NCBI GenBank assembly: GCA_964489145.1
Contig: CAZAXL010000004.1
Location: forward strand, 8,176 to 72,175
DNA length: 64,000 nt
Direction: 5' to 3'
Origin: an uncultured Gammaproteobacteria bacterium
Lineage (GTDB): Bacteria; Patescibacteriota; Microgenomatia; UBA8517
Below are positions 37,651 to 55,313 of the stretch, in pieces. A program made the translations under genes and the position numbers. Each line of letters begins with the position of its first letter. The first letter of the stretch is position 1. The notes beneath the pieces were generated by a model, which saw only the letters and a list, made by a program, of their open reading frames with translations, made no database searches and was not told the DNA's origin.

Positions 37651-37872
37651 TTATTTTACGGGGTCAAATCCGTAATCTCCCCAAGGATGGCATTTACTAA
37701 GCCTTTTTAAACCCATTTCCAAACCTTTGGGAAAACCAAATTTTTCCAAGGCCTCAATTGTATATTCCGAACAGGTCGGTGTAAAACGACAGGCTTTACC
37801 AAAAACAGTCTCCAGAACCGGAGAGATAAATTTTTTATAAAAGCCTAATACAAAGATCAATATTTTTTTCAT
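37651..37872 (-). CDS. yidD: Membrane protein insertion efficiency factor YidD
   Basis: CRFTPTCSEYTIEALEKFG...KCHPWGDYGFDPV Cys-rich YidD signature. Confidence 0.8.
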   Translation of the reverse strand: MKKILIFVLGFYKKFISPVLETVFGKACRFTPTCSEYTIEALEKFGFPKGLEMGLKRLSKCHPWGDYGFDPVK

Positions 37873-38213
37873 TTCATTAGTCCCGCTTTTCTAAGCGAGA
37901 AACGAACCTCTTTCATTATGTCTGTCGTTGAAACTCTGTAAATACTTGTCTTTGCCAAAAAAACCACATCGTATCCTTGAACAAGGTTGATACTATCGAT
38001 TCGAACAGCCTCGCTCATTGCTCTTTTGAATCTGTTCCTATCAACCGCATCTTTTGCAATTTTTGTAGAGACTATAAATCCAAATTTACTGGGTTCCTTG
38101 TCCCCTCTCTCTACATATGCTATTCCGAAACTGTCTGATTGAAATACTTTTCCTTCAGTTTGAACCCTGGCATAATCCTTTGCACCGGTAAGTTTAAATT
38201 TTTTTGCAAGCAT
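37869..38213 (-). CDS. rnpA: RNase P protein component
   Basis: 114 aa basic protein, FKRAMSEAVR block, conserved position between rpmH and yidD. Confidence 0.7.
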   Translation of the reverse strand: MLAKKFKLTGAKDYARVQTEGKVFQSDSFGIAYVERGDKEPSKFGFIVSTKIAKDAVDRNRFKRAMSEAVRIDSINLVQGYDVVFLAKTSIYRVSTTDIMKEVRFSLRKAGLMK

Positions 38214-38222
38214 AATTGGAGC

Positions 38223-38363
38223 TTAAACAGAAAGATGTTTTCTCCCCTTCAGTCTTCGTCTTTTGATTATATTTCTGCCGGACTTGGTGCTCATTCTGAC
38301 TCTGAAGCCGTGAGCTCTAACTCTCTTAATTTTACTTGGTTGATAGGTTCTCTTAGTTGCCAT
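38223..38363 (-). CDS. rpmH: Ribosomal protein L34 (not in the supplied ORF track; found by manual translation)
   Basis: Minus-strand translation [46 protein letters not shown] (46 aa). Confidence 0.85.
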
Positions 38364-38502
38364 GACGTTTATTATAGTTTAACTATTAAATTTTGGCAAT
38401 TGGGGCTTGACGAATTGTGGATAACTTTGTAAATAGTACTAAGTACTTAGAAATTTCTGCTCCAAAGCCTCTTGATTTTTACAAGGTACAGATTAATCAA
38501 TT
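38364..38502. promoter_or_regulatory. rpmH-dnaA intergenic region with perfect DnaA box TGTGGATAA (38415..38423); dnaA promoter / oriC part
   Basis: ttgtggataac = reverse-orientation TTATCCACA; AT-rich. Confidence 0.55.
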
Positions 38503-39864
38503 ATGAACAATGAACAAGTTTGGAAAGATTCGCTAGAAATTATAAAGGTCACGGTTTCACCCGCAATATTTTCTACCTGGTTCTCACAAACCCATCTTGT
38601 TTCCATAGAAGACTTAAGCGAGAGGACTATTGTTGAAATAGGGTGTCCCACTTCTTTCGCAAAAAATACTATTGAGGCTAGATATTTCGGTTTGGTCCAG
38701 GACTCATTATCAAAAGTGGTGGGAAAGAAGTGTGACTTAACTTTCATGGTTAAATCAAATCCTAAAATAATTAAGGACACACTAGGGGAGTCCTCTCCGC
38801 TCTTTTCGGTTGAAAAAGATGAAAAAAGCTCTCTTGAGGTTTTACAAAGAGCAAGGGTAAGACCGAGTTTCACTTTTGAAAATTTTGCAGTTTCTTCTTC
38901 AAATCAAATGGCTCATGCCGCAGCAGAGGCAGTTTCTAAAAACTTGGGGTCTGCATATAATCCTCTTTTTATCTGGGGTGGGGTAGGAGTCGGAAAGACT
39001 CATCTCATGGTTTCCGTAGGAAATTCTGTTCTAAAAAAAGATCCCGAGAAAAAAGTACTTTTTTGCACCGGAGAGGATTTCACAAATGATATTGTTGAGG
39101 GTATCAGAAACAAGACAACACAGGCTTTTAGAAACAAATACAGGAAGCTTAATCTGCTTCTTATTGATGATATTCAATTTATTGCCGGCAAAGTCACCGT
39201 ACAGGAAGAATTTTTCCATACTTTCAATTCAGTTACTTCCGTCGGAGGACAAATTATATTAACTTCCGATAGACCACCTTCCGAAATTTCCAAACTTGAA
39301 GAAAGGCTCAGAAGCCGATTTGAGGCCGGTCTTATCGTAGACATAGCCCCGCCGGATTTTGAACTAAGGTGCGCAATCACCCAAATTAAAGCAAGAGAAA
39401 AGGGAGTTGATGTCTCTTCTGAACAAGTTCAAATGATTGCAGCAAATACTGAATCCGCCAGAAAAATTGAGGGAATTCTGACAAGAATTTTAACCGAGAT
39501 ACACATAAAGAATGTTGTTGTTACAAACGAGTTAATCGAGTCGATGTTTTCAAAAAGCTTAGAAACTTCAGGGAAAATAACTCGAAGTTCTCCCGATGAA
39601 GTTATTGATGCTGTTTCTAAATACTTCCAGATAGGAAAGAGGCTGCTTTTGGGGGAGAGTAGGGCGCGGCCCATCGCAAGGCCAAGACAAGTTTTAATGT
39701 ATATCTTAAGAACTCATCTAGGAATTCCTCTGGAGGAAATTGGGAGAGTGGTCGGAGGAAGAGACCATACTACAGTAATGCACGCTGTGGAAAAGATAAC
39801 AGGATTGGCCACAATCGATGTGCAAATCCGTGAGGATATTTTGAAGATAAAACAAACCATTTGA
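38503..39864 (+). CDS. dnaA: Chromosomal replication initiator DnaA
   Basis: AAA+ Walker A GGVGVGKTHL, Walker B LLLIDDIQF, C-terminal DNA-binding domain (RPRQVLMYILRTHL...GGRDHTTVMHA). Confidence 0.9.
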   Translation: MNNEQVWKDSLEIIKVTVSPAIFSTWFSQTHLVSIEDLSERTIVEIGCPTSFAKNTIEARYFGLVQDSLSKVVGKKCDLTFMVKSNPKIIKDTLGESSPLFSVEKDEKSSLEVLQRARVRPSFTFENFAVSSSNQMAHAAAEAVSKNLGSAYNPLFIWGGVGVGKTHLMVSVGNSVLKKDPEKKVLFCTGEDFTNDIVEGIRNKTTQAFRNKYRKLNLLLIDDIQFIAGKVTVQEEFFHTFNSVTSVGGQIILTSDRPPSEISKLEERLRSRFEAGLIVDIAPPDFELRCAITQIKAREKGVDVSSEQVQMIAANTESARKIEGILTRILTEIHIKNVVVTNELIESMFSKSLETSGKITRSSPDEVIDAVSKYFQIGKRLLLGESRARPIARPRQVLMYILRTHLGIPLEEIGRVVGGRDHTTVMHAVEKITGLATIDVQIREDILKIKQTI

Positions 39865-40180
39865 AAACAATTTTAAAGTTTATTGACTTATCAACAACAA
39901 GATTCAAATTATCCACAAATCTATTCACAATTGTCTATGCCTACCATCAACACAAAATCATCCCGAAAAGTAAATTTGTTTTTGAAAAGTTTTCTACTTA
40001 TCAACACTCTCTACTACTAGAACTACTAGTTAATATATGATAAACAAAGTTTGTCACAAACTACCGTTTATGATATTTGTCACAAACTACCGTTTATGAT
40101 ATTTGTCACAAACTACCGTTTATGATATTTGTCACAAACTACCGTTTATGATAAACAAGGTAAAGAAAAATTAACGAAAT
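39865..40180. promoter_or_regulatory. Putative oriC: dnaA-dnaN intergenic region with DnaA boxes and 4 x 26-bp direct repeats
   Basis: Perfect TTATCCACA at 39908..39916; TTATCAACA variants x3; TTTGTCACAAACTACCGTTTATGATA repeated exactly 4x at 40050..40153. Confidence 0.65.
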
Positions 40181-41293
40181 ATGAAATTGCAGGTACTTCA
40201 GGAAAATCTGGAAAAAGCAGTCAGTATAACGACAAGATTTGCGAGCACTAAAGCACAGCTTCCTATTTTAGGAAACATTCTTTTATCTGCAAAAAAAAGC
40301 AAAATATTCCTATCTTCAACAAATCTGGAGATATCAGCATCAGTGCAAATTGGGGCAAAAGTTGAGAAAGAAGGAGAAATAAGCATTCCGGCAAAAGTCA
40401 TTACAGACCTTATTTCTAATTTACCCAAAGAAACAATAAACCTTGAATCTGAGAAAGAACAATTAAAAGTTTCAACAACAGGATTTTCATCCACTATTTT
40501 AGGAATTGATCCTACGGATTTTCCGAAGGTTCCCAACACACTTAACGATAAAAACACCATTGTTTTTTCAAAAAAAGAGATATCTGATTCTTTGAATAAG
40601 GTTATTTTTGCCACTTCGGTTGACGAAACAAGGCCAATCTTGACGGGAGTTCTTTTTATATTGGATAAAAATTCCTTATCTTTAGTCGCTACGGATGGAT
40701 TTAGGCTTTCCAAAAAAGTTATTCCTCTTAAAGACTCTAAAAGTGACAAAAAAACTGTAGTTATTCCAAAAGGTGTTTTAGGGGAAATTAATAGGGGAAT
40801 TTTCGAAGCTGATGAAATTCTTTTTGATTTGGAAGAAAATGAAAAACAAATTATTTTTGGAATAGAAGATACTGTTTTAACATCCAGACTATTGGAAGGA
40901 GAGTATCCTGATTTTGAAAAGATAATTCCCAAAGAGTCTAATATCAAAATCACACTGGATAAAGAAGAATTTTTGAGAGCGGTGAAGCTTGCCTCTATTT
41001 TTGCCAGAGAATCCGCGAATGTTGTAAAAATTAAAATTTTGAAAGATTTGATAAAAGTTTCGGCTGAAAGTAGCGCGGCGGGAAGTCAGGAAACTAAGGT
41101 TGATGCAAAAATTGACAAGGGAAGTTCTGAGGAATTTGAAATTGCTTTTAACTACAGGTATATAGAAGATTTTCTACATTCGGTGGTAGGGGAGGAAATA
41201 AAAATGGAGTTTTTGAATTCGACCTCTGCAGGAGTTTTTAGAGATACGAATGATTCAAGTTATCTTCATTTGATAATGCCGGTAAAAATATAA
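40181..41293 (+). CDS. dnaN: DNA polymerase III beta sliding clamp
   Basis: MKLQVLQENLEKAVSI start, three-domain ~370 aa, position after dnaA. Confidence 0.85.
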   Translation: MKLQVLQENLEKAVSITTRFASTKAQLPILGNILLSAKKSKIFLSSTNLEISASVQIGAKVEKEGEISIPAKVITDLISNLPKETINLESEKEQLKVSTTGFSSTILGIDPTDFPKVPNTLNDKNTIVFSKKEISDSLNKVIFATSVDETRPILTGVLFILDKNSLSLVATDGFRLSKKVIPLKDSKSDKKTVVIPKGVLGEINRGIFEADEILFDLEENEKQIIFGIEDTVLTSRLLEGEYPDFEKIIPKESNIKITLDKEEFLRAVKLASIFARESANVVKIKILKDLIKVSAESSAAGSQETKVDAKIDKGSSEEFEIAFNYRYIEDFLHSVVGEEIKMEFLNSTSAGVFRDTNDSSYLHLIMPVKI

Positions 41294-41873: not shown

Positions 41874-44723
41874 CTAATTGAAAATATATCTCATTAAAAA
41901 TTGGTAGTGAATTGGCCATTTTTGTTGGACGTTTCCACACCTAGGTTGGACAACATAGAGAGCTATTGCTTCCGGTAGAGATTCGCCATCGTTCCAATTT
42001 TGGGTAGCACTATAAAAACAATACGGCGACTCACTTGTTATTCCCGGATACTCTAAATACAACTGATAGAGTTTTGCGGTTTTATTTCCCCACGATAATG
42101 AATGTCCTAGTTCGTGAGAAAGGGTGTAAAGGGCATCTGCCTGATTTTTAACACCAAGTTTGTAAAAATCTACATAGCTTCCATGATTCCAGCCCCAAAA
42201 GCTTTCAAATGAGAAGGGATTGTACCTAAGAGGTAATGATGGATAAGACATACAAACTTTTGAGATGTAACTGCTATATTTTGAAACCATGACACCCCTT
42301 GCATTAACAATGTTGGCATAATATTCTGATGGCCAAGCGTTGGAATCGATATTTAAACATGCCGCCGGGGGAGTGCCTATTGATATAGAGGCCGCACCGG
42401 ACACTTCTTGTTGGGCAGCTTCTTCTGAATCTGCTATGACAGTAAAAGTATCTAAAATAACGGAATCTTTATAATCATTTCCGGAATAATTTTCGGTATA
42501 AGTAAAAACATAAGGGGCACTGGGAGATATTGAATCAGGAATGTCGGTGGACACTTCAGATGGGCAGGTTTTTGTCGGACCCGTCGAAAATATTTGGCAG
42601 TCATTTTTGAAGGCAATATTGGTTAAGGGGCTTTTCTTTGCGGTAACAGTAATGGTATAGCTAATTTGTAGTGGTAATTCAGTGTTTTTAAATGGTCCCT
42701 GAGGGGTTGCTACTTTGTCAACTTGAATGTGGGGGTTCGAACTTAAAGTTGTTATTTGTGTAGGAGGAACAACATAAGCGCCAGAGTTAATGATAAAAAG
42801 AATAAGAGCAACTACTACAGGGAAAACTAAAAGAGTTATCAAAACAGGTGTTCCAATTGAGACAAGAACCGCCCCTCCAAGGGTTGTAAAAAAACTGCCG
42901 ATACTTGTTCCGACAGTTCCCAGATTGATTGTTCCACCTGCGGCCGCCGATGCTAGGCCGAAAGAACCTATTCCGACCACAACTCCCACGAGAGGTCCCG
43001 CAATTGCGAAAGATCCAATTCCCAGAACAGCTCCTATTATGTAGGGGGCGTTTTTCTTGATTTTGTCCCAGGGGATTTTACTTGCAATCCAGCCAACTGC
43101 TGCACCAATTGCAGCTGTTACTACTGCGAGCGGACCACCAGCCAGTCCTAATGCCGCACCCGTTCCGGCACCGGTGGCTGCACCGCCGGCTGCTCCCACT
43201 GCGGTTCCAGTTGCCCCACCCGCTGCAACTCCGACACCTGTTCCAACGGCTTCACCAGCAATCACACCTCCAACCCCGGCAGTCACGACTCCGGTTTCTA
43301 AAACGGCGGTTCCCGCAATGGCACTGACCCCCTCGGTGGCGACAATTGCTGTACTAGCAACCTCAGTCGCAGCCGGTGTTATAATCGTAAAACCAAAATC
43401 AATTCCCAATGAGCTTCCCAGTCCTTCAAAAAAAGTTGAGGCTCCTGGTATTTGCTGGATAATAGGAATAAACACACCGTCCCCAAAGGGGGTGTACTTG
43501 GTTAGTCCAACAACAGAAAGAGCTTGTTGTCCAAGCTCACTGTTATATATTCCCGTAATTAAACTGTCGGAGGGCAATTTCATAATTTGAGAGTCGAGAA
43601 AATTACGGGCTTGTCCAAGCAGGAAACCTTGGGCTTGGTCTTTGCTAAATGAGGTCACACTGTCCAGTAAATTTGATTGAGATTGAAGAAGGTTTGAATA
43701 GCCGTCACTTAGTTGATGAAGATCAATCTCGTGTGTATATCCCTCTATCGGCTGGGTAGTGAGTGTAACTTTAATTTCATTTGGATCGGGTCCAAAAACC
43801 ACAGCAGCAAGATCTCCATTTACAGACGTAAGAATGTTTCTGCTTAGTTGAGTGGAATTATTAAAGAAGGCTAATTCTTGCGTAGCTGTTTTTAAAAAAT
43901 TCTGTACGTTTGCGTCGGAACTAATACTTTTGACGATATTGGTTTCTTTAGAGACAGACTTCAAAATAGCTGTTTGGAAATTTGTTTCTATTTGCTGTGA
44001 GGGGTTGTTAATTGCAAGCACTGTGTCATTTGCCGTTTTGTCAGATAAAACCGTAATTTCTTCTTCTGACAAATTTTTGGCAAATTCGCTCGAGTGAATT
44101 TTTGCCTTTACAATGTTGGAAATTTCTTTTCTGAAAGATTGAGGATATTTTTTGGCTTCCTCAATAAACTGTTTGGTGTTTTCATCCGGTGTTTGAGTTT
44201 GAGGCGCCTCAACTTTTACATAAATTTTTTTATTTTCCAAAAAACTTTGTATTTCTTTTTGTTTTTGTGTTTTTTCTTCAAAAGACTTCTTTATTCTTTC
44301 GATTTCTTGTTGTCTTTTATATGTTTCTTGTTTTTTTCTTAAAGCCTCCTCAACATTTTTTTGAGCACTTTTTTGGGTTTCTTTTAGTTCAGCTTCTCTT
44401 TTTTGCCGTTCGAGTTCCAGAAGTTCCCTCGCTTCTTTATCCGGCAGATTTGAATCAACCGGCTTTTCCTCTTGTTTATTTGAAGTGAGTGCTTCAACGG
44501 CAAGCTGTGCCCTTTTTATATTTTCCAGATCCCTTTCGGATTTAATTAAGACCCCTGTAAGACGACTTATGAAATCTATGAAATCTGCACGGTTTTTCCA
44601 GTTAAACTCACCCGAAACATAAGATTTGTCTGCCGCATAAATTGTGTCTTCGGGGAAAAAATGGGCAAATGCGTCTATTAAATATTTTGTGTTTTCGGAA
44701 GTCAAACTAATTTTATTTGCCAT
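41874..44723 (-). CDS. Large membrane protein of T4SS-like locus: N-terminal coiled-coil domain, Gly/Ala-rich multi-TM segment, C-terminal HExxH zinc-metallopeptidase-like domain
   Basis: Coiled-coil/charged region aa 80-190; ~180-aa G/A/V-rich hydrophobic block; TLSHELGHSL (HExxH) near C-terminus; immediately follows VirB4. Confidence 0.45.
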   Translation of the reverse strand: MANKISLTSENTKYLIDAFAHFFPEDTIYAADKSYVSGEFNWKNRADFIDFISRLTGVLIKSERDLENIKRAQLAVEALTSNKQEEKPVDSNLPDKEARELLELERQKREAELKETQKSAQKNVEEALRKKQETYKRQQEIERIKKSFEEKTQKQKEIQSFLENKKIYVKVEAPQTQTPDENTKQFIEEAKKYPQSFRKEISNIVKAKIHSSEFAKNLSEEEITVLSDKTANDTVLAINNPSQQIETNFQTAILKSVSKETNIVKSISSDANVQNFLKTATQELAFFNNSTQLSRNILTSVNGDLAAVVFGPDPNEIKVTLTTQPIEGYTHEIDLHQLSDGYSNLLQSQSNLLDSVTSFSKDQAQGFLLGQARNFLDSQIMKLPSDSLITGIYNSELGQQALSVVGLTKYTPFGDGVFIPIIQQIPGASTFFEGLGSSLGIDFGFTIITPAATEVASTAIVATEGVSAIAGTAVLETGVVTAGVGGVIAGEAVGTGVGVAAGGATGTAVGAAGGAATGAGTGAALGLAGGPLAVVTAAIGAAVGWIASKIPWDKIKKNAPYIIGAVLGIGSFAIAGPLVGVVVGIGSFGLASAAAGGTINLGTVGTSIGSFFTTLGGAVLVSIGTPVLITLLVFPVVVALILFIINSGAYVVPPTQITTLSSNPHIQVDKVATPQGPFKNTELPLQISYTITVTAKKSPLTNIAFKNDCQIFSTGPTKTCPSEVSTDIPDSISPSAPYVFTYTENYSGNDYKDSVILDTFTVIADSEEAAQQEVSGAASISIGTPPAACLNIDSNAWPSEYYANIVNARGVMVSKYSSYISKVCMSYPSLPLRYNPFSFESFWGWNHGSYVDFYKLGVKNQADALYTLSHELGHSLSWGNKTAKLYQLYLEYPGITSESPYCFYSATQNWNDGESLPEAIALYVVQPRCGNVQQKWPIHYQFLMRYIFN

Positions 44724-44725
44724 AG

Positions 44726-46546
44726 TTATTTACCGGAGTAGGGATTTGTTGCCACCCTAATTACTTCCTGCGGCTTGGTTGTTATAAGCTTGTTCTCATT
44801 CTCCGAGGCAACAATTCTGATTGGTGCGTGGTGAGGTCCGGCAAAGAAAATTCCTTCTCCGACGTTGGCAGCCAGAAGAAGTCTCTTTTCTCCCTGGGAA
44901 AGGTAAAAGACCTCGCCGATTTTATCAATTGCCGCCGGTGATTGCTTCAGGAGGACCTGCATAGCGCTGTTTGTGACAATAGCCTTTCCTATGTCCTGTC
45001 CGAGGAAGTCTTCGACGTCCTGGGTTATCGTAGTGAGTCCCAGATAGTATTTGCGGGCCCTCTTGACAACACTCCAAAGAAATTGCGCCGTATCTGGATA
45101 TCTCATCATGTGCCAAGCCTCGTCAACTATCAGAATTCTTTTCTTTAAATCTTTCTTAACCCTTGTCCAAATATAATCGAGAATTATGAACATGGCGATG
45201 GGGCGGAGTGCATCCTGCAGATCTTTAACGGAGAAAACAGTAAATGGGTTAGTGATATTAATATTCGTTTGCTGATCAAAAATTCCCACAAAACTTCCTT
45301 TGACAAATTTCTCGATTCTGGCGGCCAGATCCAGTGCGTCGGGGACCTCCATTCCAATAAGAGTTTTGTAAAGATCCTCCATTAAAGGCGGTTCTTTTCC
45401 TTGAGTATCAGGATCCATAGTTATTCCCTTGGCTTTATAGGTGATAATCAGGGCTCTATCCAAAAGTGCTTCCTGAGTTGGAGTAATTGCTCCCATGATT
45501 ACTTTCATCAGAGAATGAAGTGAGAGAATTTTAAGTCCAAGCTGGTTTTCTCCCTCCTCCCTGATTTGTGATAAGTCGAAGGGGTTTATTTTTGCGGTTG
45601 AGTTGTAGGAGAAAGAAATGTATTCGCCCCCCACAGCTTCAGCAATGGTTTTGTACTCGCTTTCCGGATCAATAACAATTGTTTCTATCCCAACCATGAG
45701 TGACCTAATTGCTTCCAGTTTGACAAAATAAGACTTGCCGGCGCCACTGGTTGCGAAGATTGTCATATTGGCGTTTTGCAGGCTAAATCTATCAAAAATG
45801 ATAAAAGACTCGTTTTGGGAATTTATACCAAAGAGCACCCCGCGGTCGCTTGAAAGCTCAGTTGAGGTTAAGGGAAAAGTTGTGGCTACGGAGGTTGTGT
45901 CCATATTTCTCGTAATGTTTAACCTGTCTATTCCAAAGGGAGCCGTTGCCGTAAAACCCTCGGACATATCAAGCATGGCGTGTTTACTGACAATCATTAA
46001 GGATCCAAGTTGGGATTCAACCTGTTTGGTTATTTGGTTAAGTTCCTCGGGGGAGTTGGCGGGAATTGTTATGTAAAATCCAAATTCATAAAAACGCTCG
46101 ATTCCCTTGACAAGTTGTTCCTGAAGAGCTTGTGCGTCTTCGAGTTTAGCCTGTGTAACGGGGTCGACGATTTTACCGCGTTCGATATCGGTCATTATCT
46201 CAGCTTCCATTTCGGCAATTTTACGTCTTAGATCATCGAGCACACTTTTTCCGTCTACAGGATAAATGTAAAAAGAAATATCGAGAGAAGTATCTATATT
46301 CACAACCGGCTCAAGCCATCCGGGTGCAACAAATCTCGGATAACCTCCAACAAAAATAGTCCTGAAGTAGATATCGTTTATTTTTAAATAATCAAAATCT
46401 ACCTCGACAGATTGAGGGGAAATCACATCCAATAAACTCATTTTTTGATTCATGACTGAAAAAGCCGGAGATATGATCTGCGGTTTAGCCTCGGTTTCCT
46501 GGATGGGAACCGTCGGTTGCTGGCCTTGTTTATTGTCTGGTTTCAT
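44726..46546 (-). CDS. VirB4/TraC/TrbE-family T4SS ATPase, ATPase (C-terminal) part
   Basis: Walker A FATSGAGKS, VirB4-type Walker B ILIVDEAWHMM, downstream TTITQD; 606 aa is ~200 aa short of full VirB4. Confidence 0.7.
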   Translation of the reverse strand: MKPDNKQGQQPTVPIQETEAKPQIISPAFSVMNQKMSLLDVISPQSVEVDFDYLKINDIYFRTIFVGGYPRFVAPGWLEPVVNIDTSLDISFYIYPVDGKSVLDDLRRKIAEMEAEIMTDIERGKIVDPVTQAKLEDAQALQEQLVKGIERFYEFGFYITIPANSPEELNQITKQVESQLGSLMIVSKHAMLDMSEGFTATAPFGIDRLNITRNMDTTSVATTFPLTSTELSSDRGVLFGINSQNESFIIFDRFSLQNANMTIFATSGAGKSYFVKLEAIRSLMVGIETIVIDPESEYKTIAEAVGGEYISFSYNSTAKINPFDLSQIREEGENQLGLKILSLHSLMKVIMGAITPTQEALLDRALIITYKAKGITMDPDTQGKEPPLMEDLYKTLIGMEVPDALDLAARIEKFVKGSFVGIFDQQTNINITNPFTVFSVKDLQDALRPIAMFIILDYIWTRVKKDLKKRILIVDEAWHMMRYPDTAQFLWSVVKRARKYYLGLTTITQDVEDFLGQDIGKAIVTNSAMQVLLKQSPAAIDKIGEVFYLSQGEKRLLLAANVGEGIFFAGPHHAPIRIVASENENKLITTKPQEVIRVATNPYSGK

Positions 46547-47226
46547 TTGTTTTCAAGTATTACCTCGGGCTCTTTTTTGACGGCTGGCTTTTCCGGATTG
46601 TAAATTGAATAAAACAAGTTTATAAGATCGGGGGTTGTAAGTTGTTTGAATTTAATTCCAAGTCGTCCTGCCTGACGGACAAGATGGTCGCGTCTTGGGT
46701 AAAGAGCAATTTTTGCTTTTTTAATAACATATGATTTAGTAAATGGAAGGGGTCCGGATAATTTCGTAACCGCGGCTATAGATTTTGCTACCCCAAGCTC
46801 AAGTGGAGACAGATAAAGAACGACAAAAAATCTTTTTCCTAAAACATTTTTCTTTTTAACGGATTCGGTTATAAAGTTTTTATAATCCTGCATGAGATTT
46901 GCAAGAAGGGGCTGAGTAATCTTTTTTGATTGCTCATCCAGAAAGTTTAGATATGATGAAATATCTTTCTTTTGGGTTAAAACAACAATTTGTACGGAGA
47001 AAGTAAGTGAATTTACCATGGCTGCATAAGCAGCAATTACGGCTTCCTGTTCTTTTTCCGAAAGGAGCCCAAAGTTTAGGGAACTTGACTCCATGATAAG
47101 TGCTGCTCCGCCATCTTTATAAATAACGATGTCATTGGTAATGTCGGCAACAGGTACAAAATCTTGAGTGGTTGAAGTTAAAGGTTTGTCGGGAATATTT
47201 ATAAATGGAATTTTAGGTATATTCAT
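46543..47226 (-). CDS. Probable VirB4 N-terminal domain encoded as a separate ORF (split VirB4)
   Basis: 227 aa, soluble; DIVIYKDGGAALIMESSSLNFGLLSEKEQE resembles VirB4/TrbE N-domain; ATGA overlaps with flanking genes on both sides. Confidence 0.4.
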   Translation of the reverse strand: MNIPKIPFINIPDKPLTSTTQDFVPVADITNDIVIYKDGGAALIMESSSLNFGLLSEKEQEAVIAAYAAMVNSLTFSVQIVVLTQKKDISSYLNFLDEQSKKITQPLLANLMQDYKNFITESVKKKNVLGKRFFVVLYLSPLELGVAKSIAAVTKLSGPLPFTKSYVIKKAKIALYPRRDHLVRQAGRLGIKFKQLTTPDLINLFYSIYNPEKPAVKKEPEVILENK

Positions 47227-48290
47227 TGGTTTGTTAGTATGTTTGTCGGTTGTTGCATTGGGGTTGCTTGAGTCGTCACAAGTGACCTTCCTTCTACCAG
47301 AATCGGGGGAATAATTTCTCCTTTGGCCTCAAAATTAACGGGCATGAATTGATATCCGTCCTTTTCACTGATAATGCCATATTGGCCGTTATCAAGAGCA
47401 GTGACCGCCATAAAGTGTCCGAGCTTGTTGCTTCTAAGGGCTCTAATGGGCCTGCCGTATTCGTCTCTAATCTCAATAATTGCTCCTTCAATAATTCTTC
47501 TTGCCTCGTCAACAACCTGACCCACCACTACGTTGGGATATGTAGGCGGGTTTGGGGGAGTGGCGTCAATTGAAAAAATGGCTTCTCTGGTAGAAACTAT
47601 TTCTTCCCCAGCAATTGTAGGATTAACATGCTGAGTCTGGACTTGCACTGTTTGAGAAACGGGTTGAACCCTTTCCTCGACGACAAGGTGGGTGGTCTGC
47701 ATGGGGGTTATTTTGACAGATGTGCTTACGGGAATCTCCAGTTTTTTGGGAGCAGGGGGGGGTGTTGGGACGGTGGGGGTTTGGGCTGTGGCCACAGGAG
47801 TTACAGGACCTTTAATGCCGGCAAATATACCGGCAAGGGCAGCCAGGAAACCCTGTTCCGCACCCTCCAATTTAGCAAGAGGTCCGGCCATTTGTTTAGC
47901 GCTTTCCAAATAGTTTTTGAGAGCAGCGTCTTGGTTTTGATTTCCCTGTTGGGGCGGAATATTGCTGACCGCAGTTTCATCTTGAAAAAACCTGGGAACC
48001 TCTTTTGTTTTTTTCCAGTTGAAAATTGTTGGAGAATAGATTGTTTTAAAAAACGATAAAATCCACTGTTCCAGGGGACGCTCCTCAAGAGGGACAAAAG
48101 CCATGGCGGCGCCCAAAATTACAGAGACAATTGCAAACGGCCATTTGATTATTCCAATTAAAGGAGATGAATAAAAAATTAAACCAACCAAAAACCCCCC
48201 CGCAAGCTGAAAGAATTGCTTGAGAGTCATATCTCCCACCAACCGGAATTGGTAAGAAGATATATTTTGCGGAATTGGATGTTGTTCCAT
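47223..48290 (-). CDS. PrgI/VirB3-like membrane protein with ~250-aa C-terminal extension (first gene of operon)
   Basis: DMTLKQFFQLAGGFLVGLIFY...two TM resembles PrgI-family PLTLRQF..L..G block; directly upstream of VirB4 as in monoderm T4SS. Confidence 0.5.
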   Translation of the reverse strand: MEQHPIPQNISSYQFRLVGDMTLKQFFQLAGGFLVGLIFYSSPLIGIIKWPFAIVSVILGAAMAFVPLEERPLEQWILSFFKTIYSPTIFNWKKTKEVPRFFQDETAVSNIPPQQGNQNQDAALKNYLESAKQMAGPLAKLEGAEQGFLAALAGIFAGIKGPVTPVATAQTPTVPTPPPAPKKLEIPVSTSVKITPMQTTHLVVEERVQPVSQTVQVQTQHVNPTIAGEEIVSTREAIFSIDATPPNPPTYPNVVVGQVVDEARRIIEGAIIEIRDEYGRPIRALRSNKLGHFMAVTALDNGQYGIISEKDGYQFMPVNFEAKGEIIPPILVEGRSLVTTQATPMQQPTNILTNQ

Positions 48291-48431: not shown

Positions 48432-51152
48432 TTGTTATATAATTTACATATGCCCGACGGTATGTCACCTGAAAACAAACCACAATCAAGTATTGAATTT
48501 ATGAAATCCCTCGGAGGACCGACCAGACTTCCTGCTAATGAAATAACAGGCCAGGCTGCGAAAGATTTTCCTCAACCTGAATCAAGAGCTAATGTTCCGG
48601 ATATAAGGATGCAGGTGGGCAATGGTGATGAAGAAAGTAATGCAGCAGCGGAGCGTGCAAAGCTGGAATATTTAATACGAATGGGTGAGCTTATGGGTTC
48701 AGAAGAGGGTGGGGGTTATTTAAATAAGTTTATAGACAACATTCGGGGTTTATCCAAAAAAGTAGAAGACCCCACAACTCACGAGTCAAGAAATAAAACC
48801 GAGGAAGAGAAAGATAAAGTTAGGGAGAATATTGCAGAGGCTTACGTTCATCTGTGCCATGCAGAGCTTGATGAAATAAACACAATAAATAAATATCTTG
48901 AGGATTTGAAAAACCCATTCCCTTACGATTCAAGGTGGACAATCCAGACTTTTGAAAGGATCGAAGAAAGAATAAATGGAGTACTTAGGGAAAAGAAAGG
49001 TAGGGCAGTTGATGGTGAAGGTAGGGCGCTACTCCATATGTACAAAAGGGATCTGAAGTGGGCGCTAGCCACAGCAAAAATAAACGAAGCAATGGGGCCA
49101 GCCTACGAGCTTTATTTTGACGGTGAGTTAGAAATGCAGCGCCTAAGAACTCCGCATAGCGAAGTTAAAGCATCAGATTTCATGAGTGCTTTTCAGGGAC
49201 ACGAAACCGGTTTTGAGAAGGATGTACTTGATGAAGAAAATAAATTAATACAGAAAACACTTTTGAAGATTCCACCCGAATATCTTAAAGATGTGGACGG
49301 AGAAAACACTTTTAAAGAAAAGACTTTGGTGGAAAAGGCAATAGAATATCAAGATTTATATAGCACACTGTCGCTCGATGCTTTCGCTTCGGCCCAAAAA
49401 AATCTTGAATATGGGTTCGGTGCTGGAGACGATAAAGAAGCTGGAAATCATTATAAAAACATAGATTATGTTACCTTTCGCTTAATGAATGAACTTTTTA
49501 GCTCTTCTAAGGCAGTTGAGGATGGAAAAGTTGTGGAAGCAGAGGACGAGAATTTAGTTTATGTTAATCGAAAAGGAGAGGGATTTAATGTTAAAGCTCA
49601 TCCGATTTTGAACCCTCACAATATGCAGAGGGATGACGATCTTGCCTACCGTCAATATTATTCGAGGATGCATGAGCTTATGCTTCATTGGAATGATGCT
49701 TACAGTAGTCAAATTGATGAAGTTAGGAATGTTTCAGACTTGTCAAAAGACGATATAGACGAAAAAATTAGAGCAATTGCCGACGGAATTGTAGCTAAAG
49801 CGGATAAAAGAGCTAAATCACAAAGAACTTTAGACGAAGGCCATCCGTATGACAGGTTAATAGATACTGTAATTAATTCTCAAATTAATCTGGAACGCGG
49901 AATTCTTGCAAGTGGAGAGTATGGCTGGGGTTGGTCTTATAATGAGAAGACTGATAAAAGAGGAAATGTTGTGGTAGTAAGGAAATCTGAACTTGGAAGC
50001 ATATATGATAACCACGATCTCACAACTATGGTTTATTGGGCTAGGCACATTATTGACTACGATAACATGGGGGAGACACGGGGAGCTCTTCTGTTTCCTA
50101 CAATTGGCAGTTACAGAGAAAGGTGGATGAGCGAACCTCCATATTGGAAGCCGGAATTGACTGAGTTTGCCCAAAATGATAACACTCTTCTTCGAAGATT
50201 AGGGTTGGAAGGCAGTTATGGGATTCTTTCCCAGAAAAATTTCCTGGAGGATAAAGTTGGTAGAAAAACGTACTTTAAGGGGGCGAAAGGGTGGCAAGAG
50301 CAAAAATATGGCAAGTTTGATGAGTCTTGTGCAAAGTATATCAAAGAGAACGCCTGGGCATTTGTTACTTGTTGGTTAAACGAACCTGGTAAAGGGAGCG
50401 ATGAATACAATCTTGTCTTCCCAGTCTTTTTACCGACAATGATTGAAGATGTTAATTTTTGGAGATCTGTTAGCCTCCAGGGACCGTCTGAAAAAATTAA
50501 TACTTACCCTCTTGCAGATCCTAAAAAGGGTGATCCAAAAAGTCTTTGGAATGAAAGGATGGAAGGGAAAAAGTTGTCAGAAATGCGGTGGGAATATATG
50601 TCCAAGTATAAATACAATTGGACAATGGTGAACCTGGATCAGATGGAGCGCTGGTTTGGGCCAATGGTAACGCCACACGATTTCAATAAGTCAACCGCGC
50701 CGGAATTTGAAAAACACTACAACATGCCAGGTGGTAAAAGTGAAAAAGAGGCAGGGAAAAGAGGAAGATTGGGAGCAAGGGGCTCACGTTGGGTGGATGG
50801 AGTTATTAGAGCAACGGTTTTGGCCCAAAACAAGGTGCTATCTGCGGTCCAGTTAAGTGGAGTTATGGGTGTGGATGTTTCTGCGCTTACAAATGTAAAT
50901 GAGAGAAATTCTTCCTTGAATAAGGAATTGGATACATGGAGATTAAATTGGATAGCCCCTTGGATAAACACAATGCTAGATATGCCCTCCGATGTGCGCA
51001 AGGTTAAAAATTATGGAGGAACAGCTGCTCAATCACTTCTGGTGTCTTACCTTCAAGTTCGAAGAATTATAGCCTCTGCTGTTGCCCACAGTAATGGTCA
51101 AAAGCTGGACGTTAACAAATCTATAGACCAAATAGAAGAAGGATTTACTTAA
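48432..51152 (+). CDS. Large soluble hypothetical protein (906 aa), plus-strand gene inside the minus-strand T4SS-like locus
   Basis: No TM, no recognisable motifs; TATAAT lies inside the first codons, so true start may be MPDGMSPEN at 48450. Confidence 0.4.
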   Translation: MLYNLHMPDGMSPENKPQSSIEFMKSLGGPTRLPANEITGQAAKDFPQPESRANVPDIRMQVGNGDEESNAAAERAKLEYLIRMGELMGSEEGGGYLNKFIDNIRGLSKKVEDPTTHESRNKTEEEKDKVRENIAEAYVHLCHAELDEINTINKYLEDLKNPFPYDSRWTIQTFERIEERINGVLREKKGRAVDGEGRALLHMYKRDLKWALATAKINEAMGPAYELYFDGELEMQRLRTPHSEVKASDFMSAFQGHETGFEKDVLDEENKLIQKTLLKIPPEYLKDVDGENTFKEKTLVEKAIEYQDLYSTLSLDAFASAQKNLEYGFGAGDDKEAGNHYKNIDYVTFRLMNELFSSSKAVEDGKVVEAEDENLVYVNRKGEGFNVKAHPILNPHNMQRDDDLAYRQYYSRMHELMLHWNDAYSSQIDEVRNVSDLSKDDIDEKIRAIADGIVAKADKRAKSQRTLDEGHPYDRLIDTVINSQINLERGILASGEYGWGWSYNEKTDKRGNVVVVRKSELGSIYDNHDLTTMVYWARHIIDYDNMGETRGALLFPTIGSYRERWMSEPPYWKPELTEFAQNDNTLLRRLGLEGSYGILSQKNFLEDKVGRKTYFKGAKGWQEQKYGKFDESCAKYIKENAWAFVTCWLNEPGKGSDEYNLVFPVFLPTMIEDVNFWRSVSLQGPSEKINTYPLADPKKGDPKSLWNERMEGKKLSEMRWEYMSKYKYNWTMVNLDQMERWFGPMVTPHDFNKSTAPEFEKHYNMPGGKSEKEAGKRGRLGARGSRWVDGVIRATVLAQNKVLSAVQLSGVMGVDVSALTNVNERNSSLNKELDTWRLNWIAPWINTMLDMPSDVRKVKNYGGTAAQSLLVSYLQVRRIIASAVAHSNGQKLDVNKSIDQIEEGFT

Positions 51153-51161
51153 ATTGTATTT

Positions 51162-52889
51162 CTAACGCTCCCCGGGCCCTTTCTGGCCGCCGGTACCTGG
51201 TTGTCCGCCTTGTTTTTGCATACTCTTCAAGATATCATTCAACACTTTCATTGCTCCTCGTCCTCCACCCCTGCTTTCAATTGCTTGCTGCAACCTTCCC
51301 GCTGCATATGTCGTTCCAGCTTCTGCTCCATATTTCTGTACACCGGAGGCAACTCCACTAAACGGTCCCAGAGCCTCACCAATTCCTGTTCCTGCAAATT
51401 CTTTGCCTGCCATAAATGATTCGATAGCCTCAGATATTTTTGGTATCATCATGATTATACCAACACTCATCAACAAAAATGCAATTGCCGTAGCAGAAGC
51501 GGGGTTTCCTAGCATTGGAGGTCCCCAAGCATTGCAAAAATCTAGAGTATTAGCAGGGTCAAAAAATTCAATTCCTGTAAATTTACTTATCAACCCCAAC
51601 TCCAATCTTAGTACGGGTTTAAGTATGCTCATGAGACCGTTGTTGCAAATAGCGCCGTATACAGATGTGGCCATGGAGTATCCCAGTAGGAAAAAAGATA
51701 TATAAATGAATATTCCGGTAAGGGGAAATACTAGTAGTTTTGAAAACAATTTCTTGAGCCAGCTACTAAAACCCGACTGTGGAAAGAGTGTGCCCATGGT
51801 GATCTGGAGTGGGGCAATTATTATAAGGCCATACACTGCCGCTAGGTTTTTAAAAAGCATAAATATGACTCTGACAGTGCTTACAATAAGTATAAGTAGC
51901 AAGATTATTGTGAAGATAATGAGAAGCAGGCTAAAAAGTGTTGAAGAAATATGGAAACCTGAAACCGATGCTAATAAAGCAACGACCGCAGCAACAAAAA
52001 ATAATATTATATATGCGATAAAATAAAAAAATATTGCGATACCACCATCTTGTAGAAGTGGGATAGACCCGTTGATGAAAGCAAAAATAATTTTTCCCTC
52101 TGCCACCTTCAAAAAATTTGTTGGAATAAAGGACGACATCATAGCAGAAAATACACCCATAATGACATATATTAGGTCAATCATGAATCCAGCAATCGCG
52201 AATGAAAATGTTACTAAAATAAGCGAAATAACTATTTTAGGTAAAGCAGATTGAACACTAATTACTAGTTGAGGGGATAACTTAACCCTCAACATGATCA
52301 TAAAAGCGAAAACAATTGTTACTATTACGAACAGGAAGAAGGAGAAATTTCTGGTTAGTCCCCAAAGTGGTCTAATTACTGTTAATACCGTATAACCATA
52401 TCCGGTGGTTTGGGCGTGAACTTCCGTAACCGGGTCCAGTTTTCTTATTATGTTTTTGACATAACTAATGCCAGAAATTGGTCTATCAGCAAAAATCTGG
52501 GAAGCAATAGATGGTTGATGTTGTGTGTTTTCGGTTAAACCAAGGTCGGCTGTAGAATCATTTATAAAATTAGTGAGACCATCAACACAAGCATCTAGTT
52601 GAATATTTGACGCAACGGCCCCCATAAAACAACTGGCAACATCAGTATTGCCTCCGGTTACCAAGTTAATAAACATAGAAGGAAGGCTGTAGATAATCCA
52701 TTGAACCTGAGCTGCGGTATAACGCTCTCCAAAAATTTCATTTTGATTTGAATTGTCGTATACCTTTAGGTACCATTCAGGGAGAGATTGGTTGTACCAA
52801 GTTGTTTGAGCCTTGGCCTGAGAGAATGGGCCGAGGGAAATAAGAAAAGTAGTGCCGATTAGGATGGATATGAGCAGTTTTTTAAACAT
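51162..52889 (-). CDS. Polytopic membrane protein, VirB6/TrbL-like (inferred)
   Basis: Signal peptide, ~150-aa extracytoplasmic N-domain, >=6 TM, Gly/Pro/Gln-rich C-terminal tail (GGQPGTGGQKGPGER) as in TrbL; position between surface protein and VirB3/4. Confidence 0.4.
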   Translation of the reverse strand: MFKKLLISILIGTTFLISLGPFSQAKAQTTWYNQSLPEWYLKVYDNSNQNEIFGERYTAAQVQWIIYSLPSMFINLVTGGNTDVASCFMGAVASNIQLDACVDGLTNFINDSTADLGLTENTQHQPSIASQIFADRPISGISYVKNIIRKLDPVTEVHAQTTGYGYTVLTVIRPLWGLTRNFSFFLFVIVTIVFAFMIMLRVKLSPQLVISVQSALPKIVISLILVTFSFAIAGFMIDLIYVIMGVFSAMMSSFIPTNFLKVAEGKIIFAFINGSIPLLQDGGIAIFFYFIAYIILFFVAAVVALLASVSGFHISSTLFSLLLIIFTIILLLILIVSTVRVIFMLFKNLAAVYGLIIIAPLQITMGTLFPQSGFSSWLKKLFSKLLVFPLTGIFIYISFFLLGYSMATSVYGAICNNGLMSILKPVLRLELGLISKFTGIEFFDPANTLDFCNAWGPPMLGNPASATAIAFLLMSVGIIMMIPKISEAIESFMAGKEFAGTGIGEALGPFSGVASGVQKYGAEAGTTYAAGRLQQAIESRGGGRGAMKVLNDILKSMQKQGGQPGTGGQKGPGER

Positions 52890-52922: not shown

Positions 52923-55313
52923 TTAATTTGGGTAATTAGGTAGTGCTATTCCCGGTGCAATGACGGAATAAATAAAGTTCAAATCGTTCGTATAACTTGA
53001 TATTTTATCTTTTTCGTTTTGATTTAGTGGGGAGCAGTGTCCAAACCAAAACATTGAAATAAAGGTACTCATATCCTTTTTACCACACTTGGCAGCGTAT
53101 GAACTTGGTAAATTTAAAAAGAAGTCTAGTTGTTTACTAAAATTATTAGTTGGTACACTTTGATTACCGTGGATGCCAAAATCTTCGACAGGATAGTTTA
53201 CAGCCTCGTAATTACTTGCATCGGATTCATGTATCCAGATGGCAAGAGTAAATATTGGATCTATATTTTTGTTTTTTGACCTCTGAATAACATCATTATT
53301 ACATTCTTTGAAGTAAGGTCTGCCGGGACCCGTCGCATACCAGATCTTGGTTATATTTTCCGCCTCGGTTTTGTTTAAACCATTCACAGCAATTTCCGGA
53401 ATGGTTTGATTGCAATTTATTTCACCGCTACTGCTCGAATCTTCATCAGAATTCGGTGCAAAAGAAATTGCGTCACCAAGCCCTTTGGGTCTGAGAGCGG
53501 TTTGGATACCATTTAAGAAATATTCGGAAATTCCTCCCAGATGGGGGAGTTTTAAATCGGTGTTTGATTGAGAGACATTCGTGCCTGAATAATTAATATT
53601 AGTAGATCCCGGCATATCCATTATCTGCCCGACGCTTCCAGCCGTGTTGGTTTTTGGGAAAATTCTCTTGAAAACCGCCATTGGACCCGCCACAAGGCGC
53701 GACCAAATATCGTCGGCGAGAGGAATTTTTGAGGTAGTTGAGAGGTTGATATAAACATCTTTTTTACACTCCTGGGTAGAAGTGGGCGCGGAGGTCGGGT
53801 TAGCATCAGGATAGAGACAATCTGCTCGGCATTCGTTGGGCGCGCCTCCGAAATAAGTACATCTTTCATAGCAACCGGTGGGGATAGGGGCGTCAAAAGT
53901 ACAAGAAAAATTGGCTGTATAGGAAAGATCCCCCGTCAGCTGTGTGGCAAAAAGATCATCTCCCTTATTTGAACGCACCTCAACGGTATTACAGGAAGTT
54001 TCCGATGCAACATTTGTCGGACTCCCGACTTTATCCTCCCCTTTTGGAGTATAGGTATCTTGCAGGAGAGAACTAAGTTGGTCAGATTCTTCCATGTGGG
54101 AGAAAAAAAGAGTAGCGGGATTTTGATTTGAGAATGCAATATTTTTTACGATTACATTTGAGTCTGACGTGCCTTGCGCGGATGATACTTGGTCGATGGA
54201 AATATTTCCTTCGACATCCTCAGTTGAAGAGAGGGGAATGTAGGAAAAGAGATCCGAATATTCATTCGAAATAAGAATATTATTCAAGCACAAAAGTATT
54301 TTAGGAAAAGGAGTAATAATACAAGAGTTTCCCTGCCATTCCTTATACGCTTTTTGATATGTTAAAGAGTCAAAGGGCTTGCCGCTTGGATCAACTCCCC
54401 AGGAAAGCGGAGGGACTCGATACGGCCAAGCTTTATTCTGGTCTAATGCCTGTGTGATAATATCTCCCGGAATAGATGGAAATGTATTAAGAAAAAGATC
54501 GAGAAGTGAAATGCCGGCGTTTTGTAGGGTATTTACAATCGAAAGATTTCCATCCCAGTTTGTTAATCTCCATTTCTCTTCACCCGGACAATCGGTGGCA
54601 ACTGTTTGACCGACGCCCAGGTTCTCCAAACCCCATTTAAGGAAAGATGGAATTAGGCTGGAGTTGATTTCTTTTTTTGTGCAAACCACAACCTGGTCGT
54701 GTCTTGTGACTTTTGCGTTTTTTATTTGCGTAAACCTATTTGCGTTTTGGATTTCCAACGGAAGAAGCTTGGCTAAGGGGCCAGAAAAATTTACTAATGA
54801 ATCATCGTCACTCTTATCAGGATATTCTTTTTTGTTTGTTACTCCTCCAAGATACCAACTTACGTAATCATTCATTTTGTCGGCGTCTGAAAGCGCGTCT
54901 TCGGTGTTGCCCATAAAAGGCAGGTCCGCACCGCTTAAATCAATCGTTACTTTGTGGCTGGGGACAGACACGTTGTATGTGCAATAAACTTTACTTCCTT
55001 TTGTGGTACAATTTCCGCCTCCTCCTGTGTATGTTTTTTCGATGGTTTCCTTCAAGGTGAGATTGTTTCCGCAAAAAGTTGCCTCACTGGCCGTTTGAGA
55101 AGTGCATTGGGTATTTGCTTGGTATGGACGAAGAGAGTTAAATTCAGTATCGGAAACATTTCCACAGGAGATATTTGTGTTAGCAGGAACTTGGGCATTT
55201 ACAGTTCCAATTTCTAATTTCAAATTTCTAATTTCTAATAAAATTACAATTAATAAAATTACAAGAACTGAAAGTTTAAAATTCGAGATTTTAGATTTGA
55301 GATTGAGAATCAT
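52923..55313 (-). CDS. Large Cys-rich secreted/surface protein (796 aa), possible C-terminal lysozyme-like domain
   Basis: N-terminal TM/signal anchor, many Cys pairs, C-terminal FTLAIWIHESDASNYEAV resembles transglycosylase ES motif (weak). Confidence 0.35.
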   Translation of the reverse strand: MILNLKSKISNFKLSVLVILLIVILLEIRNLKLEIGTVNAQVPANTNISCGNVSDTEFNSLRPYQANTQCTSQTASEATFCGNNLTLKETIEKTYTGGGGNCTTKGSKVYCTYNVSVPSHKVTIDLSGADLPFMGNTEDALSDADKMNDYVSWYLGGVTNKKEYPDKSDDDSLVNFSGPLAKLLPLEIQNANRFTQIKNAKVTRHDQVVVCTKKEINSSLIPSFLKWGLENLGVGQTVATDCPGEEKWRLTNWDGNLSIVNTLQNAGISLLDLFLNTFPSIPGDIITQALDQNKAWPYRVPPLSWGVDPSGKPFDSLTYQKAYKEWQGNSCIITPFPKILLCLNNILISNEYSDLFSYIPLSSTEDVEGNISIDQVSSAQGTSDSNVIVKNIAFSNQNPATLFFSHMEESDQLSSLLQDTYTPKGEDKVGSPTNVASETSCNTVEVRSNKGDDLFATQLTGDLSYTANFSCTFDAPIPTGCYERCTYFGGAPNECRADCLYPDANPTSAPTSTQECKKDVYINLSTTSKIPLADDIWSRLVAGPMAVFKRIFPKTNTAGSVGQIMDMPGSTNINYSGTNVSQSNTDLKLPHLGGISEYFLNGIQTALRPKGLGDAISFAPNSDEDSSSSGEINCNQTIPEIAVNGLNKTEAENITKIWYATGPGRPYFKECNNDVIQRSKNKNIDPIFTLAIWIHESDASNYEAVNYPVEDFGIHGNQSVPTNNFSKQLDFFLNLPSSYAAKCGKKDMSTFISMFWFGHCSPLNQNEKDKISSYTNDLNFIYSVIAPGIALPNYPN

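Follow-up and report, generated by a model that had tools for sequence, protein, structure and literature searches.

A conserved prgI-trsD-virB4 gene block of a Microgenomatia type IV secretion cluster, in which VirB4 is very probably made as two proteins

Results

A stretch of 64,000 nucleotides (nt) of contig CAZAXL010000004.1, here called the window, contains two adjacent open reading frames (ORFs) of 227 and 606 amino acids (aa), which correspond to successive parts of the VirB4 ATPase of type IV secretion systems (T4SS). The best overall explanation, and in our view a very probable one, is that they belong to a conserved prgI(virB3-like)-trsD-virB4 core of a chromosomal, origin-proximal T4SS of Woesebacteria/Microgenomatia (Patescibacteria), with VirB4 made as two proteins. 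The window locus is an instance of an architecture already published for Patescibacteria and for the plasmid pGO1, namely TrsD plus a short VirB4. The genomes nearest to it are those of Woesebacteria/Microgenomates.

All coordinates below are those of the whole window, and the prgI-like, trsD-like and virB4 genes and the 949-aa ORF that follows them are on the minus strand. The trsD-like gene (46543..47226) encodes a soluble stand-alone protein of 227 aa, and the gene of the short VirB4-type ATPase (44726..46546) encodes 606 aa. The stop codon TGA of the former and the start codon ATG of the latter overlap as ATGA at 46543..46546, where the plus strand reads TCAT and the coding strand AAC AAA TGA, with the ATG of virB4 embedded. 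A second ATGA, at 47223..47226, joins the stop of the prgI-like gene to the start of trsD. The initial annotation had described these ORFs and overlaps, and their positions and sizes all hold. It had proposed that VirB4 was split in two, leaving open whether the split was genuine or the product of a frameshift; the former stands, whereas the latter is excluded, as discussed below.

The 606-aa VirB4-type ATPase

Profile matches identify the 606-aa protein as a VirB4-type ATPase. The NCBIfam model conju_CD1110 (NF045971) scores 369.4 bits (E 3.6e-110), the whole-protein score passing the cut-off of 325. The ORF spans positions 180–735 of the 752 in this model, so that the model is not covered at full length by one polypeptide; the spans are 288–893 of 894 for Mbov_0397 and 238–724 of 792 for TIGR00929, both also from NCBIfam. 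The protein is about 150–290 aa shorter than full-length VirB4 models, consistent with the shortfall of about 200 aa estimated at the outset. In Pfam it matches P-loop_TraG (2e-27, 96.3 bits with the cut-off at 25.8), AAA_10 and DUF87, and among the PDB chains it matches 4ag5, the VirB4 C-terminal domain (6.8e-45). The Pfam match to CagE_TrbE_VirB at residues 57–200 is weak (E 0.093) and under the curated cut-off. Both nucleotide-binding motifs are intact: Walker A, ATSGAGKS, at aa 265–272 (TIFATSGAGKSYFVKLE; 45731..45754, minus strand, calculated from residue numbers taken from the sequence and the alignment numbering), and Walker B, ILIVDEAW, at aa 471–478 (45113..45136, minus strand). The gene thus encodes the second half of the VirB4 N-terminal domain and a complete P-loop C-terminal domain.

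In some relatives a LAGLIDADG intein of about 580 aa (Pfam Intein_splicing and LAGLIDADG_3) lies at the Walker A region of virB4, the ORFs being 1158–1215 aa long (L014:6754-10326, L016, L031; P0308, P0309, P0312, P0318, P0319, P0360, P0362, P0371, P0387). The window virB4 has no intein.

Identity of the 227-aa protein

Four lines of evidence agree that the 227-aa ORF encodes a member of the TrsD family, with homology to the first ~200 residues of VirB4 in its full-length form: collinearity with the NCBIfam models, natural fusions, structural matches to TrwK and the architecture of pGO1. In NCBIfam, it matches VirB4_plasma at positions 102–234 of 894 (1.5e-9), CD1110 at positions 21–111 of 752 (0.004), and the TrsD/TraD model NF041427 at positions 13–142 of 201 (E 3.8e-8, 33.4 bits). 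The CD1110 positions absent from the short ATPase (1–180) are the region matched by TrsD. The protein is a remote TrsD homologue that falls outside the narrow staphylococcal/enterococcal subfamily NF041427 (pGO1/pSK41 type).

Precomputed annotations assign the 'TraC-like' family PF26593 (PF26593.2) to P0001, a database entry of 227 aa whose listed identity to the window protein and coverage of it are both 100%, to the best 120 of 1455 homologue clusters, and to the TrsD of the related locus L039. We found no mention of PF26593 in a literature search. The local Pfam scan of TrsD yielded only a sub-threshold match to DUF643.

The block IVIYKDGGAALIMESSSLNFGLLSEKEQE (aa 33–61; 47044..47130, minus strand), originally noticed as VirB4 N-domain-like, is the most conserved part of TrsD in the 40-sequence family alignment A1. 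Of the eleven invariant family columns, three (N51, F52, E59) fall within it, as do the near-invariant G39, L54, L55, S56 and Q60, and the protein does match the N-terminal parts of VirB4 models. The suggestion that the protein is soluble is borne out by the Kyte-Doolittle scan, which revealed no convincing membrane helix: the top 19-residue mean is 1.63, and this segment is located in a helix and a strand of the globular model.

That model, obtained with AlphaFold2 (AF2), has pLDDT 77 and pTM 0.64. When it was compared with the PDB by Foldseek, the best 13 matches were all TrwK/VirB4 chains of the R388 T4SS, with E-values from 3.9e-3 to 0.15, probability up to 1.00 and about 214 aligned columns, and the rest was noise. 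At the sequence level, TrsD alone or as a family profile retrieved from the PDB chains either nothing or chance-level DciF and prenyltransferase matches (E ≥ 0.05), and the match of the full-length profile to TrwK was weak and confined to the ATPase domain. The concatenated TrsD and VirB4 were modelled with a paired alignment built from natural fusions. This model aligns with full-length TrwK over about 837 columns (E 2e-20); its pLDDT is 68 and its pTM 0.43, which makes the inter-domain geometry unreliable and the TrsD-VirB4 interface unreadable. The comparison of the concatenated pair with full-length VirB4, suggested by the initial annotation, thus shows collinearity with the VirB4 models, with the fused protein P0140 (see below) and with TrwK, and the 227-aa protein matched no unrelated family, an outcome that would have spoken against the split.

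Many TrsD homologues in more distant genomes have Q/P/S/T-rich low-complexity C-terminal tails of 100–500 aa with no Pfam match, for example P0174 (715 aa), P0152 (597 aa), P0128 and P0124. The tail of the window TrsD is merely about 17 aa.

Conservation of the split and of the gene order

The stand-alone protein of about 227–249 aa is represented by 1455 homologue clusters from independent assemblies. The best 120 of these are all 219–249 aa long and 77–100% identical, and come from Woesebacteria/Microgenomates assemblies. A 227-aa protein listed as fully identical to it (100%, with 100% coverage) occurs on 21 contigs of differing source. In 35 related loci, the genes follow one another as prgI-trsD-virB4 wherever the contig reaches far enough. 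In all loci related to that of the window that have both genes (33 of 33), trsD ends at its own stop codon and virB4 has an ORF to itself, and the two-ORF arrangement is not due to chance, because the order recurs in all 33 and the ATGA in 11. The identity across the related loci is 55–97% for TrsD and 60–98% for VirB4, the lowest VirB4 value being that of a 43-residue fragment. A short VirB4 lacking an upstream partner would have argued against a split protein; the partner is there in every relative examined.

The junctions between trsD and virB4 vary. Besides the 11 ATGA overlaps, there are six other overlaps (1–26 nt) and 16 gaps (1–72 nt), and the frame relations 0, 1 and 2 are all represented among the 33. 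This bears directly on the possibility that one full-length virB4 of the window genome has been split, either by a frameshift error of sequencing or assembly or by a mutation that recently made it a pseudogene. Full-length one-piece versions do exist in relatives, and two ORFs in different frames with a 4-nt overlap have a geometry that an indel of one nucleotide could give. However, one frameshift cannot yield varied junctions and all frame relations across 33 loci, and hence it is excluded and the split is genuine. The 21 contigs and 1455 stand-alone clusters, the clean ATG starts retained by both window ORFs and the strong conservation of both also argue against it, and we assign this explanation a practically negligible probability. 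Judged by these comparisons of sequences, the two-gene split is genuine and under selection.

Another way to obtain a full-length VirB4 would be programmed ribosomal frameshifting at the ATGA site. In its favour, virB4 lies in the -1 frame with respect to trsD, and the sequence where they meet (GAAAACAAATGAAACC) is rich in A. On the other hand, inspecting the junction revealed no canonical slippery heptamer (X XXY YYZ), and the junction is not conserved, the relatives having gaps of 1–72 nt, other overlaps, and in-frame arrangements that would need readthrough. Moreover, a frameshift product offers nothing beyond what separate proteins could supply. We consider programmed frameshifting very unlikely, and retain the reading of two separate proteins.

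A number of records of metagenome-assembled genomes with the prgI-trsD-virB4 of the Woesebacteria type (55–89% protein identity) bear the title 'uncultured Gammaproteobacteria', 'Alphaproteobacteria' or 'Nitrospiraceae' (L002, L005, L009-L011, L016, L021, L024, L027, L029, L032-L035). Mislabelling or contamination of the bins is the probable cause.

Fused relatives and switching between fused and split forms

The search of orthologous loci for a single ORF, also suggested by the initial annotation, found none among the 33 loci related to the window and a number of them in other relatives. The fused protein P0140 (787 aa) aligns by its residues 4–199 with residues 14–210 of TrsD (48% identity) and by its residues 201–768 with residues 30–596 of the window VirB4 (65% identity). 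As the two alignments nearly abut, the split point is a short variable linker. P0140 was observed in at least two independent samples with the common synteny prgI, fusion, large protein, dnaN, dnaA. One-piece TrsD-VirB4 proteins (738–897 aa), some of them named Amesbacteria, constitute 43 of the best 120 P0140 homologues and are interleaved by rank with short VirB4s whose ATPase part reaches up to 88% identity. The split locus L039 (VirB4 P0295) and the fused locus L036 have equal synteny, with 88% identity between their ATPase parts, and in L039 a separate 198-aa TraC-like gene has a 4-nt ATGA overlap with the short virB4.

Mapping the fused and split states by parsimony on a tree of 122 sequences, built from the ATPase part, requires 9 changes, and 7–10 over 25 bootstrap replicates, compared to about 36 for shuffled states on the same tree. 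The tree was constructed by neighbour-joining only, and the presence of trsD upstream was confirmed in just the loci used and in that of P0295. The difference between 7–10 and about 36 changes means that the state is heritable yet has been repeatedly switched, and we conclude that the fused and split forms interconverted at least about 7 times among these 122 close relatives. The clade of the window itself is uniformly split. Neither the one-piece proteins in PMC12102498, nor the fused/split polymorphism in that paper or related literature, was found to be mentioned.

We lean, by a narrow margin, towards TrsD and the VirB4 ATPase forming a module that in Microgenomatia is repeatedly detached and re-attached through small changes of the linker, the synteny remaining unchanged. 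If so, the fused and split proteins form a 'Rosetta-stone' series by which TrsD would serve in trans as the N-terminal subdomain of VirB4, and the detachment may be adaptive, allowing an altered TrsD:VirB4 stoichiometry or long disordered tails such as those of TrsD in other Patescibacteria.

The same fusions are relevant to a further explanation, according to which the 227-aa protein acts independently as an accessory factor, such as a regulator or a chaperone, and is only distantly related to the VirB4 N-terminus, while the short VirB4 works alone. This could account for the Gracilibacteria TrsD homologues that do not adjoin virB4, for the long low-complexity tails of many homologues, which a plain VirB4 subdomain would not need, and for the lack of a confident docking of TrsD and VirB4 by AF2. 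At the same time, the 43 natural fusions join the TrsD and VirB4 parts in the canonical VirB4 order via a short linker, the interconversions (at least seven) with identical synteny are the pattern expected for parts of one complex, and TrsD matches the region missing from the short ATPase. Given this, an independent accessory factor seems unlikely, though less so than either kind of frameshift, and TrsD as a part of VirB4 is the preferred reading.

Comparison with known systems

Remote homology of TrsD to the VirB4 N-terminus was described by Quinonero-Coronel et al. 2025 (Microb Genom, PMC12102498), who reported TrsD in the pGO1 subclass of the mating-pair formation class MPF-FATA, with no function assigned. 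In the same study no other T4SS component is as abundant in Patescibacteria, TrsD having 2,272 homologues, 1,664 of them adjoining virB4, and Ca. Southlakia epibionticum is stated to require it as an essential gene. An essential role of the Patescibacteria T4SS in epibiotic growth is reported for Ca. Southlakia epibionticum ML1 only (cited in PMC12102498), and the cluster is often located near dnaA, dnaN and rnpA (PMC12102498). Guglielmini et al. 2014 do not name TrsD in their main text, and hence the homology statement rests on PMC12102498 and the present tests.

The window locus shares with the published Patescibacteria systems the stand-alone TrsD-like gene directly upstream of an MPF-FATA-related virB4, the PrgI/VirB3-like gene, the VirB2-like pilins and the adjacency to dnaN, dnaA and rnpA; further, no relaxase was detected by Pfam among the nine neighbouring window proteins scanned. 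There is no essential difference. In the window and all 35 related loci prgI is directly upstream, whereas the VirB3 homologues of Microgenomatia are reported to be mostly not adjacent to virB4 (22.6%) (PMC12102498).

The conjugative plasmid pGO1 of Staphylococcus aureus has the same order of genes, trsC (VirB3-like), trsD (227 aa) and trsE (672 aa, VirB4 type). Its TrsD matches alignment A1 in hhalign with 95.7% probability (E 1e-8) over 180 columns, residues 18–212 against 32–218. TrsE is 26% identical to the window VirB4, residues 39–596 of the latter aligning with 35–635 of TrsE; hence the split point is shared. The identity between the window protein and the pGO1 TrsD is only about 19%, and trsD and trsE are separated by a gap of 14 nt, in contrast to the ATGA overlap of the window. 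Besides, pGO1 is conjugative and carries a relaxase and a coupling protein, while the window contains a chromosomal cluster that is thought to be non-conjugative.

Full-length VirB4 proteins (TrwK of R388; CD1110 and Mbov_0397 of integrative and conjugative elements of monoderms) are collinear with TrsD plus the 606-aa protein and share the Walker A and B motifs, the difference being one chain of about 750–900 aa instead of two. With the N-terminal domain of TrwK, the sequence similarity is undetectable and the likeness is that of the modelled fold alone. Finally, VirB3-VirB4 fusions, known in some conjugative systems but not reported in Patescibacteria (PMC12102498), similarly point to boundaries that are fluid in evolution between VirB3 and the N-terminal domain and ATPase of VirB4. 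In those fusions VirB4 gains an additional partner, whereas in the window the VirB4 N-terminus is detached.

A probable two-protein VirB4

In the R388 T4SS, VirB3 wraps around the VirB4 N-terminal domain (TrwK residues 15–400), which alone forms the interface of the central/outside VirB4 dimer and binds the VirB8 tails (PMC9259494); these roles refer to the whole domain and not specifically to its first ~200 residues. The first half of this domain corresponds to TrsD, and its second half, together with the ATPase domain, to the 606-aa protein. The most economical reading is that TrsD and the short VirB4 assemble non-covalently into a complete VirB4-like protomer, to which TrsD would contribute in trans the surfaces for PrgI/VirB3 docking and for oligomerisation, that is, for the VirB4-VirB4 dimer.

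No Shine-Dalgarno-like sequence is seen within range of the trsD start or the virB4 start. It is plausible from the layout of the genes that the translation is coupled at the ATGA overlaps, as the initial annotation had proposed: termination and reinitiation would then yield PrgI, TrsD and VirB4 in matched amounts, and the gene order together with the overlaps would favour co-translational assembly.

Several observations weigh against this picture. The 227-aa ORF misses the cut-off of NF041427, which is 200 bits. PF26593 was not returned by the local hmmscan of the window TrsD, although the Pfam copy used may lack this model. For TrsD by itself, Foldseek gives weak E-values even with the best match (3.9e-3, TMq 0.46), with the aligned TrwK residues not reported, and the sequence profiles do not reach the N-terminal domain of TrwK. 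The binding of TrsD to the short VirB4 or to PrgI is something we infer, the AF2 docking being uninformative at the pTM given above. The coupling is deduced from the geometry, and the ATGA overlap is absent in 22 of the 33 relatives.

The gene block and its neighbourhood

The prgI-like gene (47223..48290, minus strand) is the first in the block and encodes a membrane protein of 355 aa with an N-terminal PrgI domain (Pfam match at aa 5–83, E 9.5e-7, 29.7 bits, cut-off 27) and a hydrophobic segment around aa 44. The protein is unusually long, with a P/Q/T-rich middle part and a C-terminal CarboxypepD_reg-like region, a beta-sandwich, at aa 255–314, where the Pfam match is below the cut-off.

Downstream of virB4, the 949-aa gene (41874..44723, minus strand) begins 2 nt past the virB4 stop, the junction being TAA-CT-ATG. 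With two 4-nt ATGA overlaps and this 2-nt gap, the four genes form one tightly packed block, and the 949-aa gene is probably in the same operon as virB4. The scan for promoters and terminators showed no terminator-like sites at the junctions of the block, and the count of promoter-like sites in it was not above the shuffled expectation. The 949-aa ORF had zero matches in the Pfam scan. It has a charged, coiled-coil-like N-terminus, a very hydrophobic G/A/V/T-rich centre (59 hydrophobic windows in the ORF) and a metalloprotease-like HELGH at aa 870–874 (nt 42102-42116) in its C-terminal part. A large protein occupies the same slot in L036 and L039; in the fused relative L036 it is an 890-aa Peptidase_M23 protein.

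Further upstream, a 906-aa TTG-start ORF with no Pfam match lies on the opposite strand (48432-51152, plus). It is followed on the minus strand by genes for a 575-aa polytopic membrane protein, possibly a divergent VirB6 analogue (51162-52889), for a secreted-looking 796-aa protein (52923-55313), and for two VirB2-like pilins identified by Pfam (T4SS_pilin, PF18895; 55351-55632 and 55678-56025). On the other side, rnpA, dnaA (38503-39864) and dnaN (40181-41293), the latter two located from the ORF list, directly adjoin the T4SS block (37869-41293), and so the cluster is situated beside the replication origin, as in many Patescibacteria.

Implications

The current picture of T4SS architecture is unchanged by these findings. 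For annotation, they mean that the 227-aa 'hypothetical protein' should be renamed a TrsD-family VirB4 N-terminal-domain protein, and that neither a truncation nor a pseudogene should be flagged for the 606-aa ATPase. The fused variants are ready-made for structural work. Together with the split forms, they turn the function of TrsD into a testable hypothesis, namely, that TrsD would be the VirB3-docking and dimerisation part of VirB4 acting in trans.

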